A stretch of 32,000 nt of DNA from Candidatus Nanosynbacter sp. BB002 (lineage in GTDB: Bacteria; Patescibacteriota; Saccharimonadia; Saccharimonadales; Saccharimonadaceae): positions 30,001 to 62,000 of the forward strand of contig NZ_CP146064.1 of NCBI RefSeq assembly GCF_037013405.1, in the 5' to 3' direction. Shown here piece after piece: positions 5,280 to 12,004 of this stretch. Numbering within the stretch: the first letter of the stretch is position 1; each line of letters opens with the position of its first letter. A model generated the notes under the pieces. That model had not been told where the DNA came from, ran no database searches, and worked only from the letters and a program-made list of their open reading frames with translations. The translations under genes were made by a program, and so were the position numbers.

Positions 5280-6488
5280 TTAGTTACGCATCGCTTCAAT
5301 AGTGTTGCGGTTGGCAGCGCGTACGGCTGGATAAATACCAAAGACGACACCGACCAGCATGGCAGCGCCAATACTGACGACAGCAGGCTGCCAGCTCAAG
5401 ATTGGTGAAACTGGTAGGAAGGTGCTGACGGTATACGCACCGATTAAGCCAAAGATATACCCCATAACACCACCAGCTAAACCAATGATGACTGATTCGA
5501 TCAAGAATTGATGGATGATGTGTCGGTTGGTTGCACCAATTGCTTTACGGATACCAACTTCACGCTGTCGTTCGGCAACATTTACTAACATGATATTCAT
5601 GATGCTGATTCCGCCGACAAACAGGGAGATGATTGACACAGCGATCATGATTGCGGACAGTGACAACAACATAGCGTCACTAGTTGCAGTAATATCTTTA
5701 CCTGTGATGATATGGTAGTCATTAGCATCGTGGTGATTTTGATTGAGCTTTGCTGTGATGTCAGAAATTGCTTTCTCAAGAGATGAGTCGCCGTCAGTTT
5801 TGATGGCAATTTGCTGAATTTGTGCGATATTTTGTGTCAGCTTCTTGCTGACATCAAGTGAAACGATGGCTGAGTTGTTGAAGTTAACGCCTAGATAGGT
5901 GAGAGGTTGTTTGACTGGTTTTAAAACGCCCATGACCGTAAACGGCTTATCCTGAATACGCAGGACATTACCAAGTGAATATTCGGTACCAAACAGATCA
6001 ATTGACAATTGATGACCAATAACCACACCGTTGGCTTGCCCAACAAATTGACCATCGCGTAGTTCTAACTCTGCCAGATCTTTGATTTTTTCAGTGGTAC
6101 CAATGATGGCGGTTTTGTGCGCATCGATGCGTGAGTTGGCAGTAGTGATGGAGTTGTGAATAACTGACATCGGAGCGCTGTTTGGAGTGATGCGAGCAAC
6201 GTCCTGTACATCGTATTCGGTCAGGGTCGGGAGAGGTGTGATATTTTGCGCTTGAGACAACGACCGCTCGATATTACCACCCAGACCAGACCGTATCAAT
6301 GCCACACTGTCTTTGGTGGTTGAAAACTGTTGGTTGATCAATTTATTGACACTAACAGACAGGGACATGATCATAGTGATGCCCATGATACCAATAGTAA
6401 TGCCGGTAACCGTCAATGTTGTCCGACCGCGGCTGGCACGGAGGGATTGCATGGCGTTTTCTATGTGATTTTTAAATAAAAACCTCAC
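5280..6488 (-). CDS. ABC transporter permease, MacB/FtsX type
   Basis: 402 aa with one N-terminal TM segment, a large extracytoplasmic domain and a C-terminal FtsX-like 3-TM bundle (ERQREVGIRKAIGA). Its start overlaps the stop of the upstream ATPase by 4 nt. Confidence 0.85.
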   Translation of the reverse strand: MRFLFKNHIENAMQSLRASRGRTTLTVTGITIGIMGITMIMSLSVSVNKLINQQFSTTKDSVALIRSGLGGNIERSLSQAQNITPLPTLTEYDVQDVARITPNSAPMSVIHNSITTANSRIDAHKTAIIGTTEKIKDLAELELRDGQFVGQANGVVIGHQLSIDLFGTEYSLGNVLRIQDKPFTVMGVLKPVKQPLTYLGVNFNNSAIVSLDVSKKLTQNIAQIQQIAIKTDGDSSLEKAISDITAKLNQNHHDANDYHIITGKDITATSDAMLLSLSAIMIAVSIISLFVGGISIMNIMLVNVAERQREVGIRKAIGATNRHIIHQFLIESVIIGLAGGVMGYIFGLIGAYTVSTFLPVSPILSWQPAVVSIGAAMLVGVVFGIYPAVRAANRNTIEAMRN

Positions 6489-7459
6489 TTGGTCGTCTCC
6501 TTTTTGGAAGTTTGTGTCTTCTTTGTGGATTTGGTTGAAGATTTTTTGTCAGACTTTTCAGCGGGTTTATCATCTTCTTTTTTTGGTTTCTCGGCAAGCT
6601 TAGCCTCTTCTTTTTCAGGATGTTTGGCTGGCTTTACTTCCTCTTTGTTAGGCTTTTCGGTAGGTTCAGTAGCTTTTTTCTCAGATTTCTTGGGCTTATC
6701 TGATGGTTTTGCTTCTTTTTCTTCGTCAATAATTTCCAGGTTTTTCCTAAATGGTGCTGATTTCTGTAGCTGTTCATCTGTATCGATCCTGCCGTCAAGC
6801 ATGGTGATGACGCGGCTGGCGTACGAGGTCAACTCAGGGTTGTGGGTTACCATGATGATGGTATTGCCACGGCGGTGAATGTCGGCCAACTCTTCCATGA
6901 TGATATGGCTGGCCTTACTGTCTAGGTTACCAGTCGGCTCGTCCGCCAGGATGATTGACGGGCTGTTAACGAGCGCACGAGCAATCGCTACACGCTGAAC
7001 CTGTCCACCTGACAATTGGTGTGGCATGTAATATTCGCGTTCGCCTAAGTGAAAGTTCTTTAAGATTCGGCTGGCTTCCTGTAAGCGTTTAATCTTACTC
7101 ATGCCTTTGTATGTTAGCGGGAGAGACACGTTTTCTAGGACGCTCAAGCGAGGAATCAGATTAAAATTCTGAAACACAAAACCGATGTCATCTGAACGGA
7201 TTCGGGCTAATCGTTTTGAGCCGAGATTGTCCACTGAATCGCCGTTGAGGAAATATTCACCATCTGTTGCTTGATCTAGCAATCCGATGATGTTTAAGAG
7301 AGTGGTCTTACCACAACCACTTGGCCCCATGATGGCGATAAATTCGCCCTTCTCGACGGTCAAATTCACGTCGTCAAGAGCATAGTGTTCCGCATCGCCG
7401 ATACCAAAACACTTTGTAATGTTTGTGAGTCTTATACACGGTGCAACTGGTGTATCCAT
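6485..7459 (-). CDS. ABC transporter ATP-binding protein (MacB/LolD-like) with a 79-aa Lys/Glu/Pro-rich C-terminal tail
   Basis: Walker A is GPSGCGKTT, the signature is LSGGQ, and Walker B is ILADEPT. I place the start at ATG 7459 (MDTPVAPCIRLTNITKCFG); the 22-codon upstream extension looks non-coding. Confidence 0.85.
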   Translation of the reverse strand: MDTPVAPCIRLTNITKCFGIGDAEHYALDDVNLTVEKGEFIAIMGPSGCGKTTLLNIIGLLDQATDGEYFLNGDSVDNLGSKRLARIRSDDIGFVFQNFNLIPRLSVLENVSLPLTYKGMSKIKRLQEASRILKNFHLGEREYYMPHQLSGGQVQRVAIARALVNSPSIILADEPTGNLDSKASHIIMEELADIHRRGNTIIMVTHNPELTSYASRVITMLDGRIDTDEQLQKSAPFRKNLEIIDEEKEAKPSDKPKKSEKKATEPTEKPNKEEVKPAKHPEKEEAKLAEKPKKEDDKPAEKSDKKSSTKSTKKTQTSKKETTK

Positions 7460-7595
7460 ACTATATTTATTATATGCAGTACGGGAGGATATGCAACCAT
7501 AATAGTTATGTAAAATGTACATCATCAGCCCATTTTTATATTGTTACTGCGGTAGTTGGTTATTTCCCGTAAAGTTTTGTATACTAAATCAAGAC

Positions 7596-7687
7596 GGAAG
7601 GATGCAGGAGTGGTTGAACTGACACGCCTGGAAAGTGTGTAGACTCTTTACGGGGTCTCCGGGGTTCGAATCCCCGTCCTTCCGCCA
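7596..7687 (+). tRNA. tRNA-Ser (anticodon GGA), CCA encoded
   Basis: Hand-folded cloverleaf. Acceptor is GGAAGGA/TCCTTCC and the anticodon stem is CACGC/GTGTG with loop CTGGAAA. It has a long variable arm, a T arm of CGGGG-TTCGAAT-CCCCG, discriminator G and a genomic CCA. Confidence 0.92.
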
Positions 7688-7737: not shown

Positions 7738-7791
7738 TTGCAAACCCTACATTTAGTGTTTATCATGGTGTATATACGCTATATCTATAGC
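7738..7791 (+). promoter_or_regulatory. Candidate nrdAB promoter (TTGCAA-17-TATCAT) with two NrdR-box-like sites
   Basis: Box 1 (ACCCTACATTTAGTGT, 7744-7759) matches 13/16 positions of the remembered NrdR consensus acaCwAtATaTwGtgt and fills the -35/-10 spacer. Box 2 (ACGCTATATCTATAGC, 7776-7791) matches 11/16. The boxes start 32 bp apart. Confidence 0.45.
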
Positions 7792-7828
7792 GGGTAGATA
7801 AACAAAAACCAAGAGGTGAGAAAAGCTG

Positions 7829-7898: not shown

Positions 7899-10304
7899 AT
7901 GAGTGTCATTCATGTCGTCAAACGAGACGGGACGAAAGAGCCGTTTGATGCAAATAAAATCAACATAGCGTTGCTGAAGGCGGCAGAGGGGTTGCCTGAT
8001 CAAGTATCCAAGGTCGTGCAGGTGGCTACTGAACTGCAGCTGACATTGTTTGACGGCATTACGACTGAGCAGCTCGACCAAGCGGTCATCCAGACAACCT
8101 TGCAGAATGTTAAAGACGATCCAGATTATGACAAGATCGCGGCACGGCTGTTGTTAAAAAATATTTATAAAAACACCCTAGATGATTATGAAACCGCTGA
8201 TGAGCTAAAGAAATTGCACGCAAAGAAATTTCCTCAGTTCGTGAAGGATGCAGTAAAGGTTGGGCTACTGGACCAGCGGATGACTGACGGTAGGTTTGAT
8301 TTGAAAAAGCTTGGTGAAGCGCTTGATCCTGCTAAAGACGACCTCAGTAAGTACCTCGGTGTCATCACTAACCGTAACCGCTACGCCCTGCGTAAACATG
8401 GTAGTGAGCCAATTGAACCACCACAATTTACTCACATGCGTATCGCTATGGGACTGAGCTACAATGAAAAAGATCCGACGGCTGCAGCAATCGATTTTTA
8501 CAATCACATGAGTAGCCTGGAGTATGTGCCAGGTGGTTCAACCCGCGTCAATGCCGGTGGTTCATTCCCGCAGCTCAGTAACTGTTTCTTGCTGAACGTT
8601 GATGATGATATGGAATCAATCGCCAAGGCGGTGCGTGACACGATGTGGATCGCCAAGGGTACTGGTGGTATCGGTATCGGCTTTACTAAATTGCGGGCAT
8701 CTGGCAGTCCAGTCAAGACAACCAATACGGTAAGTACTGGACCAATTCCATTTATCAAGATGATCGATACGGCGCTATTTGCCGTCTCCCGTAAGGGTAA
8801 AAAGATGGGTGCAGCGGCAGTATATATGGAAAACTGGCATATTGATTTTAGGGAGTTTATCGACCTGCGTTCTAACTCCGGTGACCCATACATGCGAACG
8901 CGTTTTGCTAACACTGCGGTGTTTATCTCTGACGAATTTATGAAGCGGGTACAAAAAGACCAAGATTGGTACTTGTTTGACCCAGCAGATACGCCAGATC
9001 TACCAGAACTGTACGGTGAAGGATTTTCCGCGCGCTACAAAGAGTACATTAAACTAGCCGAGGCTGGTAAAATGCGCGTCTTTGAAAAGACATCAGCTCG
9101 CCAGCAATTCAAACAGATTTTGACCAGTCTACAGGCTACCAGCCACCCATGGCTCACCTGGAAAGACACTATCAATGTGCGAGCATTGAACAATAACACG
9201 GGTACGATTCACCTGTCTAACCTCTGTACGGAAATTACCTTACCGCAGGACAAAGACAACATTGCTACCTGTAACCTGGTGAGTATCAACTTATCAGCCT
9301 TTTTGAACAAAGATAAGACGTGGGATTGGGATCGACTCAAAGAAGCATCGCGAGCAGCGGTACGCCAACTGGACAACTTGGTAGATATCACCCAGACGCC
9401 GATTCCGGAAGCTATGCACTCAAACAACCAAACGCGGGCAATTGGTTTGGGGATAATGGGCTTTACTGATGTGCTCGAAAAACTTGGTTACTGCTATGAG
9501 TCTAAGGAGTCGTATAGCTTGATTGATACACTGACCGAGTTCATCAGCTATCACGCCATCGACCAATCAGCAGACTTGGCACAGGAGCTGGGCAGCTATC
9601 CTACCTACAAGGGCAGCGGTTGGAGTAAGGGTATTTTGCCGATTGACACCCTGGAGACGCTGTCTACCGACCGCAAGGTAAAGGTGAAGATTGACCACAA
9701 ATCGAGCCTTGATTGGGATTCACTGCGAGTGAAAGTGAAAAAGGGTATGCGCAATGCGACACTGATGGCTATCGCGCCGACGGCGAACATTGGCCACATT
9801 GCCGGTACCACGCCAGGCATCGATCCGCAGTTTGCACAAATTTTTAGCCGCTCAACGTTGAATGGTAAGTTTTTGGAGGTAAATAATAACCTGGTGCGCG
9901 ACCTTAAGGCGCTCAATTTGTGGGATGACATCAAGGAAGAGGTATTTGCTAACCAAGGTGACATTCAACACATTGATGCTATTCCGCAGAAGCTAAAAGA
10001 TGTCTATAAAACCAGTTTCCAATTAAGCCCATATGCGTTCATTGAAGTGGCGGCACGAGCACAAAAATGGGTCGATCAGGCGATTAGCCGCAATATGTAC
10101 TTGGAAACGCGCGATATTGATGAATATGTGGAAATTTATTCTGAAGCGTGGCGTCGTGGTTTGAAAACGACCTACTATCTACACGTTAAACCACGTCACC
10201 AATCAGAACAAACCACGGTTTCGGTGGAAAAAATTGCTGAGCAAAAGATTAGAACAGGTGCAGGCAAGGCGCGTGGCTTTGGCTTTGCGAAAATTAATAA
10301 ATAA
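7899..10304 (+). CDS. nrdA: Ribonucleoside-diphosphate reductase alpha subunit (class I R1) with N-terminal ATP-cone
   Basis: ATP-cone is VVKRDGTKEPFDANKI. Active-site motifs are LSNCFLL, NLCTEI and ATCNLVSINL. Strong SD AAGGGAGG. No cysteines occur in the last 38 residues. Confidence 0.95.
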   Translation: MSVIHVVKRDGTKEPFDANKINIALLKAAEGLPDQVSKVVQVATELQLTLFDGITTEQLDQAVIQTTLQNVKDDPDYDKIAARLLLKNIYKNTLDDYETADELKKLHAKKFPQFVKDAVKVGLLDQRMTDGRFDLKKLGEALDPAKDDLSKYLGVITNRNRYALRKHGSEPIEPPQFTHMRIAMGLSYNEKDPTAAAIDFYNHMSSLEYVPGGSTRVNAGGSFPQLSNCFLLNVDDDMESIAKAVRDTMWIAKGTGGIGIGFTKLRASGSPVKTTNTVSTGPIPFIKMIDTALFAVSRKGKKMGAAAVYMENWHIDFREFIDLRSNSGDPYMRTRFANTAVFISDEFMKRVQKDQDWYLFDPADTPDLPELYGEGFSARYKEYIKLAEAGKMRVFEKTSARQQFKQILTSLQATSHPWLTWKDTINVRALNNNTGTIHLSNLCTEITLPQDKDNIATCNLVSINLSAFLNKDKTWDWDRLKEASRAAVRQLDNLVDITQTPIPEAMHSNNQTRAIGLGIMGFTDVLEKLGYCYESKESYSLIDTLTEFISYHAIDQSADLAQELGSYPTYKGSGWSKGILPIDTLETLSTDRKVKVKIDHKSSLDWDSLRVKVKKGMRNATLMAIAPTANIGHIAGTTPGIDPQFAQIFSRSTLNGKFLEVNNNLVRDLKALNLWDDIKEEVFANQGDIQHIDAIPQKLKDVYKTSFQLSPYAFIEVAARAQKWVDQAISRNMYLETRDIDEYVEIYSEAWRRGLKTTYYLHVKPRHQSEQTTVSVEKIAEQKIRTGAGKARGFGFAKINK

Positions 10305-10315
10305 AGGGGGTTATC

Positions 10316-11317
10316 ATGTCAGACTATACACATCCAAAAGGTGGAATTTTAGGCTCGGGGCTGCGCGACGGACTGAGTTTACACCCAATTCGTTACCCAT
10401 GGGCATACGATCTATACAACCAAGCGGTGGCTAACACTTGGTTTCCTAATGAAGTTCAGCTAGCACAAGACTTGATGGATTTTGAAAAACTTAGTGACGA
10501 AGAAAAGCACGCGCTCAAAACCGTCATTAGCTACCTCAATCCGAACGAGCTATTGATCAACAAGTCGTTAGCCTTTGGCATTTACCCATATGTTAATGCT
10601 GCTGAAGCGCAACTGTATCTGTCAAAGCAGATGTGGGAAGAGGCCAATCACTTTATGACCTTTGAATACATCATCGAGACCTTTCCGTTTGATCGCGAGG
10701 AGATTTACGCGGCGGGCTTTGGCAAAAAATCGCTGGCTGACAAGGCGAACTTCCAGAACAAGCACCTGGATGTCATGCTTGATCCAAATCTCGACATCTA
10801 TACCTTGGAGGGTAAGAAAAACTTTGTTCGCTCACTGGTGGCGTATAACATCGTACTGGAAGGTATTTGGTTCTACTCGGGCTTTATGGTTGGTATGAGC
10901 TTCCGTCAGCGCAACTTGCTGCGTAATGTCGGTACGCTACTGGACTGGATCACCAAGGATGAGAATCTGCACTTGACCTTTGGTATCAACTTGCTACTCA
11001 CCATTTTGGACGAAAACCCAGAACTGCAAACACAGGAATTTGCCGAGGAAATTCGCAACCTCATCCTGCAGGCGGTTGAGCTAGAAAAAGAGTACAACAA
11101 GGACATGTTGCCAAAGGGAATCCTTGGCTTGAACGCTGATTATGTCAATCAATACGTCATGCACATGACCGACCGCCGCTTGGTCGAGCTTGGCTTTGAG
11201 CCTGAATACAACGTGGCCAACCCAGCCAAGTGGATGGCTACCGCAAACGATACCCTGGAACTCGTCAATTTCTTTGAGAGCACTAACACTAGCTATGAAG
11301 TAAATACCACGAAATAA
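10316..11317 (+). CDS. nrdB: Ribonucleotide reductase beta subunit (R2), class Ic-like (Phe at the radical-Tyr position)
   Basis: Ligand pattern is E78, E109-x2-H112, E182 and E216-x2-H219, with E. coli-like spacing of 31 and 34 residues. F116 lies at His+4. A tyrosine is present in the C-terminal tail (TSYEV). Confidence 0.9.
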   Translation: MSDYTHPKGGILGSGLRDGLSLHPIRYPWAYDLYNQAVANTWFPNEVQLAQDLMDFEKLSDEEKHALKTVISYLNPNELLINKSLAFGIYPYVNAAEAQLYLSKQMWEEANHFMTFEYIIETFPFDREEIYAAGFGKKSLADKANFQNKHLDVMLDPNLDIYTLEGKKNFVRSLVAYNIVLEGIWFYSGFMVGMSFRQRNLLRNVGTLLDWITKDENLHLTFGINLLLTILDENPELQTQEFAEEIRNLILQAVELEKEYNKDMLPKGILGLNADYVNQYVMHMTDRRLVELGFEPEYNVANPAKWMATANDTLELVNFFESTNTSYEVNTTK

Positions 11318-11322
11318 CTACT

Positions 11323-11721
11323 ATGGACAAAATTACAACAGACATTTTAGACACCGTGGAAGTTGGCGCTTTGGCTACCGTTAATCGTGACAGAACACCG
11401 CTAGTGACGCCGCTCCACTTTGTACGTTATAAAAATGACAACATTATTTGGATTTCTGACCGACAATCTCGTCACGCCGTCAATGCTTACCGCAGTGGTG
11501 TTGTCGAATTTGTGGTTTGGAACGATCAAAAGAGTGCTGTATTTTTGACGACAATAGTACAAGAGCTACCGGAGGAAGAGGAAGCAGCGGCCTTGGAGGC
11601 TTATGCTAACAAGCTGGGTGACTTTATGCCACGCGTCGAACATAGGCAAATTTACATCATGCCAATCGGCAATCTTGATGAAAAAACTACAACAGGAAAT
11701 TGGCTGCACTATATTGCATAG
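11323..11721 (+). CDS. Pyridoxamine 5'-phosphate oxidase-like FMN-binding split-barrel family protein
   Basis: The 132-aa sequence VGALATVNRDRTPLVTPLHFV...IIWISDRQSRHAVNAYRSGVVEFVVW fits the PNPOx-like pattern. It starts 5 nt after the nrdB stop and has no SD. Confidence 0.65.
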   Translation: MDKITTDILDTVEVGALATVNRDRTPLVTPLHFVRYKNDNIIWISDRQSRHAVNAYRSGVVEFVVWNDQKSAVFLTTIVQELPEEEEAAALEAYANKLGDFMPRVEHRQIYIMPIGNLDEKTTTGNWLHYIA

Positions 11722-11781
11722 CCGCTACATATAGCGTATTATAAGCATAAGCAGATACTAAATATATAGAAAGACAGGAAC

Positions 11782-11955
11782 ATGAACGCAAGTCAAATTA
11801 TTTCTGACGACATGACATTGGAAGAAAAATTAAGTGCTATCGACGCAGCGATGAAAGCAGTCCAGCAGGCAGCCGACGACCAGGCAAAAAAATCTGGTGG
11901 CATTGCAGCACCGCTCGATCCCGCAAGTTTGACAGTGTGTGACGGTTGTGAATAA
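11782..11955 (+). CDS. Unannotated small ORF (57 aa) ending in a C-terminal CxxC (…PLDPASLTVCDGCE)
   Basis: My own translation gives MNASQIISDDMTLEEKLSAIDAAMKAVQQAADDQAKKSGGIAAPLDPASLTVCDGCE. It is below the ORF-track size cutoff. An intrinsic terminator follows 6 nt after the stop. Translation signals are weak. Confidence 0.4.
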   Translation: MNASQIISDDMTLEEKLSAIDAAMKAVQQAADDQAKKSGGIAAPLDPASLTVCDGCE

Positions 11956-11961
11956 AACAAC

Positions 11962-11987
11962 AGAGGTGTCGATTCGGCGCCTCTTTT
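11962..11987 (+). terminator. Intrinsic terminator closing the nrd transcription unit
   Basis: The stem AGAGGTGTC / GGCGCCTCT is 9 bp including G-U pairs, with a 5-nt loop, followed by TTTT. Confidence 0.75.
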
Positions 11988-12004
11988 GATAGGTTGGAGA
12001 AGTG

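Follow-up and report, generated by a model that had tools for sequence, protein, structure and literature searches.

In ordinary class I RNRs the active-site disulfide is re-reduced by a flexible C-terminal CxxC, which is re-reduced in turn by thioredoxin, glutaredoxin or NrdH. The tail cysteines of the alpha chain are C754 and C759 in Escherichia coli, a Cx4C arrangement, and a CxxC in eukaryotic R1; in class Ib RNR the C-terminal cysteines are known to be reduced by NrdH. E. coli also encodes, downstream of nrdAB, the ferredoxin YfaE, which serves the assembly or maintenance of the NrdB cofactor. Most class I RNRs carry their C-terminal CXXC in a disordered tail (PMC9669993), and in eukaryotic R1 the active site of one polypeptide is reduced by the tail of its partner (PMC4078304). 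In the split class II RNR, which has been called unique among free-living organisms, reductive dithiol exchange is mediated by a separate chain, NrdJb (PMC4520616). In Aeromonas phage Aeh1 a mobile element divides the catalytic barrel of NrdA into two large parts (PMC3045599), and in Facklamia ignava a complete glutaredoxin is fused to NrdB (PMC6187632). Full-text searching of the literature returned no account of a class I RNR whose tail is detached, nor of the small protein that is the subject of this report.

The window analysed here, a stretch of 32,000 nucleotides from Candidatus Nanosynbacter sp. BB002, contains a gene string made up of nrdA, nrdB, a PNPOx-like gene and a 57-codon ORF, which is followed by a hairpin and then by pyrG (Table 1). 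The first-pass annotation had proposed this ORF, ending in CDGCE, and a terminator behind it; both are confirmed, with the 57-residue product read from ATG to TAA and ending in ...LTVCDGCE, and with a hairpin and U tract after the stop codon. It had also described an NrdA that has its active-site cysteines and lacks those of the tail, and this description is correct. The window NrdA, composed of an ATP cone, an all-alpha domain and a barrel (Pfam), has only four Cys, at residues 229, 443, 458 and 532, and none in its last 269 residues. Cys 229, 443 and 458 align with conserved active-site cysteines of five outgroup NrdAs. The best structural relative of the protein is the class Ia NrdA of Pseudomonas aeruginosa (5im3), and the best-fitting NCBIfam model, NF005101 (1289 bits), extends over 34 further C-terminal positions that are absent from the window NrdA.

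Some features upstream of this gene string were recorded as separate observations. A tRNA-Ser(GGA) at 7596-7687 (+) lies between divergent ABC-transporter genes and the nrdA promoter region; it was called by ARAGORN and not reported by Rfam at the gathering threshold, and the Rfam scan of the window gave no match. The ABC-transporter ATPase at 6485-7525 (-) has a C-terminal extension of ~90 residues, which is of low complexity and rich in Lys, Glu and Pro, and pairs with a MacB/FtsX-like permease at 5280-6488.

Table 1. Features of the nrd gene string in the window, in window coordinates, and loci at which phage copies of the small-protein gene precede a redoxin gene.
Feature	Position	Strand	Basis or remark
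NrdR-box-like palindrome upstream of nrdA, CCCTACATTTAGTGTT	7745-7760	+	
NrdR-box-like palindrome upstream of nrdA, CGCTATATCTATAGCG	7777-7792	+	
nrdA, class I RNR alpha, one ATP cone, 801 aa	7899..10304	+	Pfam and NCBIfam matches
GFGFAK, NrdA residues 793-798, replacing the Cys tail	10275..10292	+	Tail comparison
nrdB, RNR beta, 333 aa, R2c-like, no Cys	10316..11317	+	Pfam and NCBIfam matches, alignment
PNPOx-like FMN-binding split-barrel gene, 132 aa	11323..11721	+	Pfam PF01243, 29.9 bits
Promoter/operator-like region of small-protein gene	11714..11769	+	
TTGCAT	11714-11719	+	Upstream of small-protein gene
Palindrome CGCTACATATAGCG	11723-11736	+	Upstream of small-protein gene
TATTAT	11737-11742	+	Upstream of small-protein gene
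Second box ACTAAATATATAG	11757-11769	+	Upstream of small-protein gene
Small-protein CDS, 57 aa, MNASQIISDDMTLEEKLSAIDAAMKAVQQAADDQAKKSGGIAAPLDPASLTVCDGCE-stop	11782..11955	+	ATG-to-TAA ORF, proposed trans-acting RNR redox tail
Predicted amphipathic helix, residues 13-38, proposed docking element	11818..11895	+	AlphaFold2, pLDDT 75-82
Predicted flexible tail, residues 39-57: P44, D46-P47, terminal C53-D-G-C56-E	11896..11952	+	AlphaFold2 and conservation
Cys codons of small protein	11938-11940 and 11947-11949	+	
Intrinsic-terminator-like hairpin and U tract	11958..11992	+	-17 kcal/mol, z = -4.1, then UUUUGA
Phage small-protein gene upstream of NrdH/glutaredoxin-like gene	L103, L105-L107, L109-L112 (about 8001-8410)		
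Phage small-protein gene upstream of NrdH/glutaredoxin-like gene	L092-L094, L123-L127, L130-L133		

The absence of the C-terminal Cys pair is shared by all of the ~140 linked Saccharibacterial NrdAs. For comparison we used five outgroup NrdAs from plasmid records (Phyllobacterium, Legionella, P. aeruginosa, Acaryochloris and a haloarchaeon), which span two Proteobacterial classes, a cyanobacterium and a haloarchaeon and are 38-42% identical overall. All five end in C-x(3-9)-[DN]-[PD]-x-CEACQ-stop. Nearly all of the ~140 Saccharibacterial tails keep a GFGF[AS][KR] end instead, which is absent from the outgroup tails. By this comparison the GFGFAK motif is specific to Saccharibacteria, and the small protein might dock on it. 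In the plasmid and phage collections, no NrdA exceeds 46% identity over the last 300 residues.

The first metal ligand of NrdB is Glu (NPNELL), and Phe takes the place of the radical Tyr (EEANHFMTFEY); the sequence carries the R2c (class Ic, Mn/Fe) signature. The same signature is present in the NrdBs of two outgroups, Phyllobacterium and the haloarchaeon. Since these outgroups keep CEACQ at the end of NrdA, tail loss is not a class Ic trait. The PNPOx-like gene lies between nrdB and the small-protein gene, a linkage that is frequent, not constant, and its product is like NrdB in having no Cys at all. It might be a flavin-dependent supplier of oxidant or reductant for the RNR. The linkage of the PNPOx-like gene persists in distant lineages, those of L089-L091 included, in which the protein is only 26-33% identical.

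The 57-codon ORF is a real gene under purifying selection. A word-indexed search retrieved 507 homologues of the small protein, nearly all of 57-59 aa, and the pooled pN/pS over 72 distinct coding sequences from genome loci is 0.24. The invariant residues are each encoded by two to six synonymous codons: six synonymous forms occur for the codons of L13 and L17, four for each of P44, P47 and G55, and both Cys residues use both of their codons. An exhaustive comparison of the small-protein profile with 1.84 billion representative proteins gave 116 clusters at 50% identity. All of these are small free-standing proteins of 32-144 aa except one repetitive protein of 826 aa, the weak match of which (E 1.1e-4) is to the helical part of the profile. 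The ORF had been described as unannotated, and in this the first-pass annotation was mistaken, as identical or near-identical proteins are already on deposit under the name 'hypothetical protein', one of them being QHU91782.1 of Saccharibacteria oral taxon 488. Neither Pfam nor NCBIfam has a family that matches the small protein. In the PDB, sequence searches that used either the family profile or just the tail gave chance matches or none.

Two other interpretations of this stretch were examined and rejected. An antisense ORF of 55 aa (11793-11960, minus strand) was dismissed as a real gene on the codon-level constraint in the plus frame, and the reading of the small protein as a RiPP precursor was dismissed on the lack of a maturase or transporter gene nearby.

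An alignment of 71 diverse members shows C53 and C56 as the sole invariant columns, while L13, K16, L17, I20, D46 and P47 are conserved in at least 90% of the members. The family follows a simple pattern, in which an N-terminal (M)TLEEKLxAID helix is joined through a variable linker to P-x-D-P-x5-C-[ED]-G-C-[QE]-stop. The chain stops exactly one residue past the second Cys in nearly every complete member. Within the general end ...DPxxLxxC[ED]GC[QE]-stop the commonest form is CEGCQ-stop, and that of the window is CDGCE-stop. The AlphaFold2 model, built with a 30-sequence alignment, consists of a single helix followed by a low-confidence tail, with pLDDT below 50 at residues 53-55; disorder is predicted for the part beyond the helix. 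The conserved hydrophobic residues 13, 17, 20 and 24 make up one helix face. We read this face of the model as a possible docking surface, for which the GFGFAK end of NrdA is one candidate partner. A distant member of the family, P0208, belongs to a lineage of 52% GC (L089-L091, peptide at about 656-1053) and ends in ACPIDPAERALCEACQ-stop, which has an extra third Cys upstream together with the exact CEACQ of NrdA tails. Its gene has a PNPOx-like gene on one side and, on the other, genes encoding a ZIP metal permease and an Fe/Mn superoxide dismutase.

The end of the small protein resembles the tail that the Saccharibacterial NrdAs lack. A terminal CE[GA]CQ-stop and an upstream DP are common to the small-protein family and the five outgroup NrdAs, although so short a motif cannot be supported statistically. 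The spacing from DP to the first Cys is 5 residues in the small-protein family versus 1 in most outgroup tails, and the N-terminal helix of the small protein has no counterpart in NrdA tails. The profile search over 1.84 billion proteins returned neither a fused intermediate nor any NrdA whose tail is significantly similar, because the shared motif comprises only about 5-12 residues. Being so short, the resemblance is suggestive of a common origin with the R1 tail, not proof of it, and convergence is possible. In loci where the small-protein gene follows nrdA the spacer is only 12-26 nt in six cases and up to 91 nt in others. This order with a short spacer would be compatible with fission of the 3' end of nrdA, an origin that is putative, since the profile search recovered, apart from the repetitive protein of 826 aa, only small free-standing proteins.

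The association of the gene with nrdAB holds in both directions. A scan of one genome per GTDB species gave 132 loci, of which the best 80 were examined. All of these best 80 of 132 come from Saccharibacteria, Saccharimonadia or Nanosynbacter, with the exception of one that is titled only 'bacterium'. In 79 of the 80, nrdA and/or nrdB is adjacent to the small-protein gene, and the remaining locus is on a contig with only 162 nt upstream. Three gene orders are found: nrdA-nrdB-PNPOx-small-protein gene, as in the window, nrdA-nrdB-small-protein gene and nrdA-small-protein gene-nrdB. In the last of these the small-protein gene begins 12-91 nt past the nrdA stop, while in the window it is 1.5 kb downstream of nrdA, behind nrdB and the PNPOx gene. 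As the converse test, 80 metagenomic loci were anchored on the C-terminal region of NrdA, with NrdAs 75-100% identical to that of the window. The small-protein gene is present in all 73 of those with enough downstream DNA (about 1.7 kb or more, with about 0.5 kb sufficing if the gene comes immediately after nrdA), and the other 7 all end before its expected position. A phage-redoxin HMM detected no Grx/NrdH-like ORF either in the window or in 160 Saccharibacterial nrd loci, and Pfam annotation of 20 other window ORFs showed no thioredoxin-system gene.

Upstream of both nrdA and the small-protein gene, a pair of palindromic boxes with centres 33-34 bp apart flanks a -10-like TTAT(C/A)A/TATTAT. 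We take these boxes to be like NrdR boxes. The latter are palindromes that occur in pairs, with a spacing of about three turns of the helix, and overlap the promoters of RNR genes (PMC9110341). In the 160 Saccharibacterial loci, a box is found within 200 nt upstream of nrdA in 87 of 123 cases and of the small-protein gene in 99 of 148, and the corresponding counts are 17/90 for pyrG, 1/149 for nrdB and 0/114 for the PNPOx gene. With such a distribution of boxes the small-protein gene appears to be co-regulated with nrdA. No nrdR gene was seen in the window. The expression signals of the ORF had been called weak at first. This is true of the SD, an AGGA two nt from the ATG, in the window only, the genes of relatives having a canonical GGGGGA/GGAGG 5-8 nt upstream of the start; for the promoter it does not stand, as the gene has a promoter/operator-like region of its own.

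Homologues of the small protein are also found on 44 viral contigs in IMG/VR, none of which has nrdA or nrdB within 8 kb, while the phage genomes in GenBank contain no homologue. Further phage-like contigs came from an exact look-up. In phages the gene occurs in replication and nucleotide-metabolism modules, with RusA, exonuclease, HNH and dATP/dGTP diphosphohydrolase genes as neighbours. In 19 of 53 phage-type loci, a glutaredoxin-like redoxin of one of at least six lineages is encoded by the next or an overlapping gene; in several the redoxin frame overlaps the end of the small-protein gene, and between the two genes there is a 37-codon ORF in one group and about 190 nt in another. One redoxin type, with CVQC and WSGFRP, scores above the NCBIfam cut-off for NrdH (88.9 versus 85.75 bits). 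From the distribution of the gene we infer that these phages infect Saccharibacteria. Dependence of the host NrdA on a tail supplied in trans would make it understandable that a phage carries a tail and an NrdH without an RNR.

Two further observations concern the phage copies. On two phage contigs a second, divergent paralogue directly follows the first (L116 8156-8308 and L113 295-480), with a different N-terminus and the same ...DPMD[ED]LQCDSCQ end. In addition, a dATP/dGTP diphosphohydrolase-like gene (PF18909; L117 4480-4830) is directly upstream of the phage small-protein gene, a neighbourhood that, judged by its domain content, places the latter in a module for manipulating the dNTP pool.

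We consider it probable, at roughly 0.7, that the small protein acts in trans as a surrogate for the R1 redox tail, serving an NrdA that has no Cys pair of its own. The idea of a detached R1 tail, put forward in the first-pass annotation, is strengthened by the conservation of the peptide with its two invariant Cys, the two-way linkage to nrdAB, the Cys-less tails of the orthologous NrdAs, the likeness of CEACQ and CEGCQ, the phage redoxins and the shared operator. Each turnover of NrdA would leave an active-site disulfide (Cys229-Cys458) to be reduced again. The small protein would dock on NrdA through its amphipathic N-terminal helix, with the GFGFAK end as one possible site, and its disordered tail (...DPxxLxxC-x-G-C-x-COOH) would enter the active site and pass on two electrons by thiol-disulfide exchange. 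It would then be re-reduced by a redoxin of the NrdH, glutaredoxin or thioredoxin type. We infer the docking, the electron transfer, the identity of the reductant and the origin by fission of the nrdA 3' end alike. In its fuller form, which we think somewhat better than an even bet, the proposal is that of a third class I RNR subunit: a diffusible, separately regulated tail would cycle between an NrdH- or thioredoxin-type reductant and the tail-less NrdA, and the phage copy, often translationally coupled to NrdH, would take over re-reduction and dNTP supply of the host during infection.

Other explanations have to be weighed against the surrogate tail. The small protein could be a metal-binding protein or metallochaperone, active as a dimer whose two CxxC ends hold Zn, Fe or an Fe-S cluster; it would be dedicated to the assembly or upkeep of the Mn/Fe cofactor of the R2c-like NrdB, in the manner of YfaE. 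CxxC motifs are often metal-binding, the NrdB is indeed R2c-like, and one distant member of the family has a ZIP metal permease and an Fe/Mn superoxide dismutase encoded beside it. We nevertheless regard a metal-binding role as improbable, since each chain has two Cys only, at the far end of a tail predicted to be disordered, and shows no ferredoxin, Zn-ribbon or other Pfam/NCBIfam signature. Phages pair the gene with NrdH/glutaredoxin and not with metal-handling genes, and the outgroups that have an R2c-like NrdB, Phyllobacterium and the haloarchaeon, keep a normal NrdA tail. Such a role would also leave unexplained both the loss of the Cys pair in every linked NrdA and the match of the terminal motif to the NrdA tail of relatives. 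The metal-chaperone half of the initial hypothesis has gained no support.

The predicted helix-plus-disorder form, the tight linkage to nrdA and the apparent co-regulation with it would suit a small disordered RNR regulator like Sml1, Spd1 or Dif1, in which the CxxC is a redox sensor and not an electron carrier. We think this very improbable: the Cys-less NrdA would be left without a physiological route of re-reduction, an inhibitor is not expected on 44 phage contigs, in replication and nucleotide modules beside redoxins, and the terminal motif is like that of the catalytic tail in relatives. The least probable of the explanations is that the gene is unrelated and merely syntenic, with a redoxin or a small-molecule reductant acting on NrdA directly. 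There is precedent for direct reduction, in that class II RNRs without C-terminal Cys may use small-molecule reductants (Burnim et al.) and DTT is able to reduce the active site directly (PMC4078304). Mere synteny, however, is hard to reconcile with a linkage that outlasts three gene orders and NrdAs down to about 75% identity, with an operator common to the small-protein gene and nrdA, with a terminal motif that matches outgroup NrdA tails and with phage copies that adjoin NrdH genes. Altogether, each of these rivals leaves unexplained at least two of four observations, namely the universal loss of the Cys pair from NrdA, the copy of the tail motif, the adjacency to NrdH in phages and the shared operator.

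If the surrogate-tail reading is true, the small protein would represent the first shuttle tail detached from a class I RNR, and its phage copies a new type of auxiliary gene. Class I RNR would gain a new component, a widespread 'hypothetical protein' would receive a function, and it would become clear how a whole class of ultra-small, host-dependent bacteria, common in the human mouth, makes dNTPs with an apparently crippled NrdA. The reading would further suggest that phages manipulate host dNTP synthesis through a module of the peptide and NrdH. The disorder and covalent tethering of the alpha tail make its part in RNR re-reduction difficult to study; with a separate tail of 57 aa, the binding, the mixed-disulfide intermediates and the stoichiometry would be directly measurable. 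A separately regulated tail and the GFGFAK end specific to these NrdAs might also offer selective handles on Saccharibacteria.

Among known systems, the small protein would have its functional counterpart in the class I alpha tail. Like the latter it has two Cys near the end of a flexible terminus (C53-x-x-C56-x-stop, with disorder predicted), and the proposed action in trans, between polypeptides, has already been seen in eukaryotic R1 (PMC4078304). It differs in being a separate product of 57 aa, with its own helix, start codon and promoter/operator, and in its longer spacing from DP to Cys. Aeh1 and Facklamia also have split or fused RNR parts or redox partners, but neither detaches the shuttle tail alone. 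With respect to the small CxxC proteins NrdH-redoxin, glutaredoxin and thioredoxin, the likeness lies in size, in the CxxC and in the proposed delivery of electrons to RNR. Unlike them, the small protein has no Glutaredoxin or Thioredoxin match even at E <= 1, and its model is a single helix with the CxxC at the extreme C-terminus, where those redoxins have a thioredoxin fold of about 75-110 aa and the CxxC at the start of helix 1; it is more likely a substrate of these redoxins than a member. From a [2Fe-2S] ferredoxin of the YfaE type it is set apart by having two Cys only, and not four that bind a cluster, and by the lack of a Fer2 match.

The split class II NrdJa/NrdJb of P. aeruginosa provides the parallel in gene arrangement, since there too a catalytic chain without C-terminal Cys is accompanied by an adjacent gene for a Cys-bearing chain. 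NrdJb, however, is a large folded chain with predicted IscU-like and Zn-finger domains, and its enzyme is a B12-dependent class II RNR. The small protein, by contrast, has 57 aa, a helix and a disordered tail according to the model, and no detectable homology to NrdJb, and the enzyme beside it is of class I and R2c-like. Since the defining domains of NrdJb, of NrdH, glutaredoxin and thioredoxin, and of YfaE are all absent from it, the small protein falls outside each of these families.
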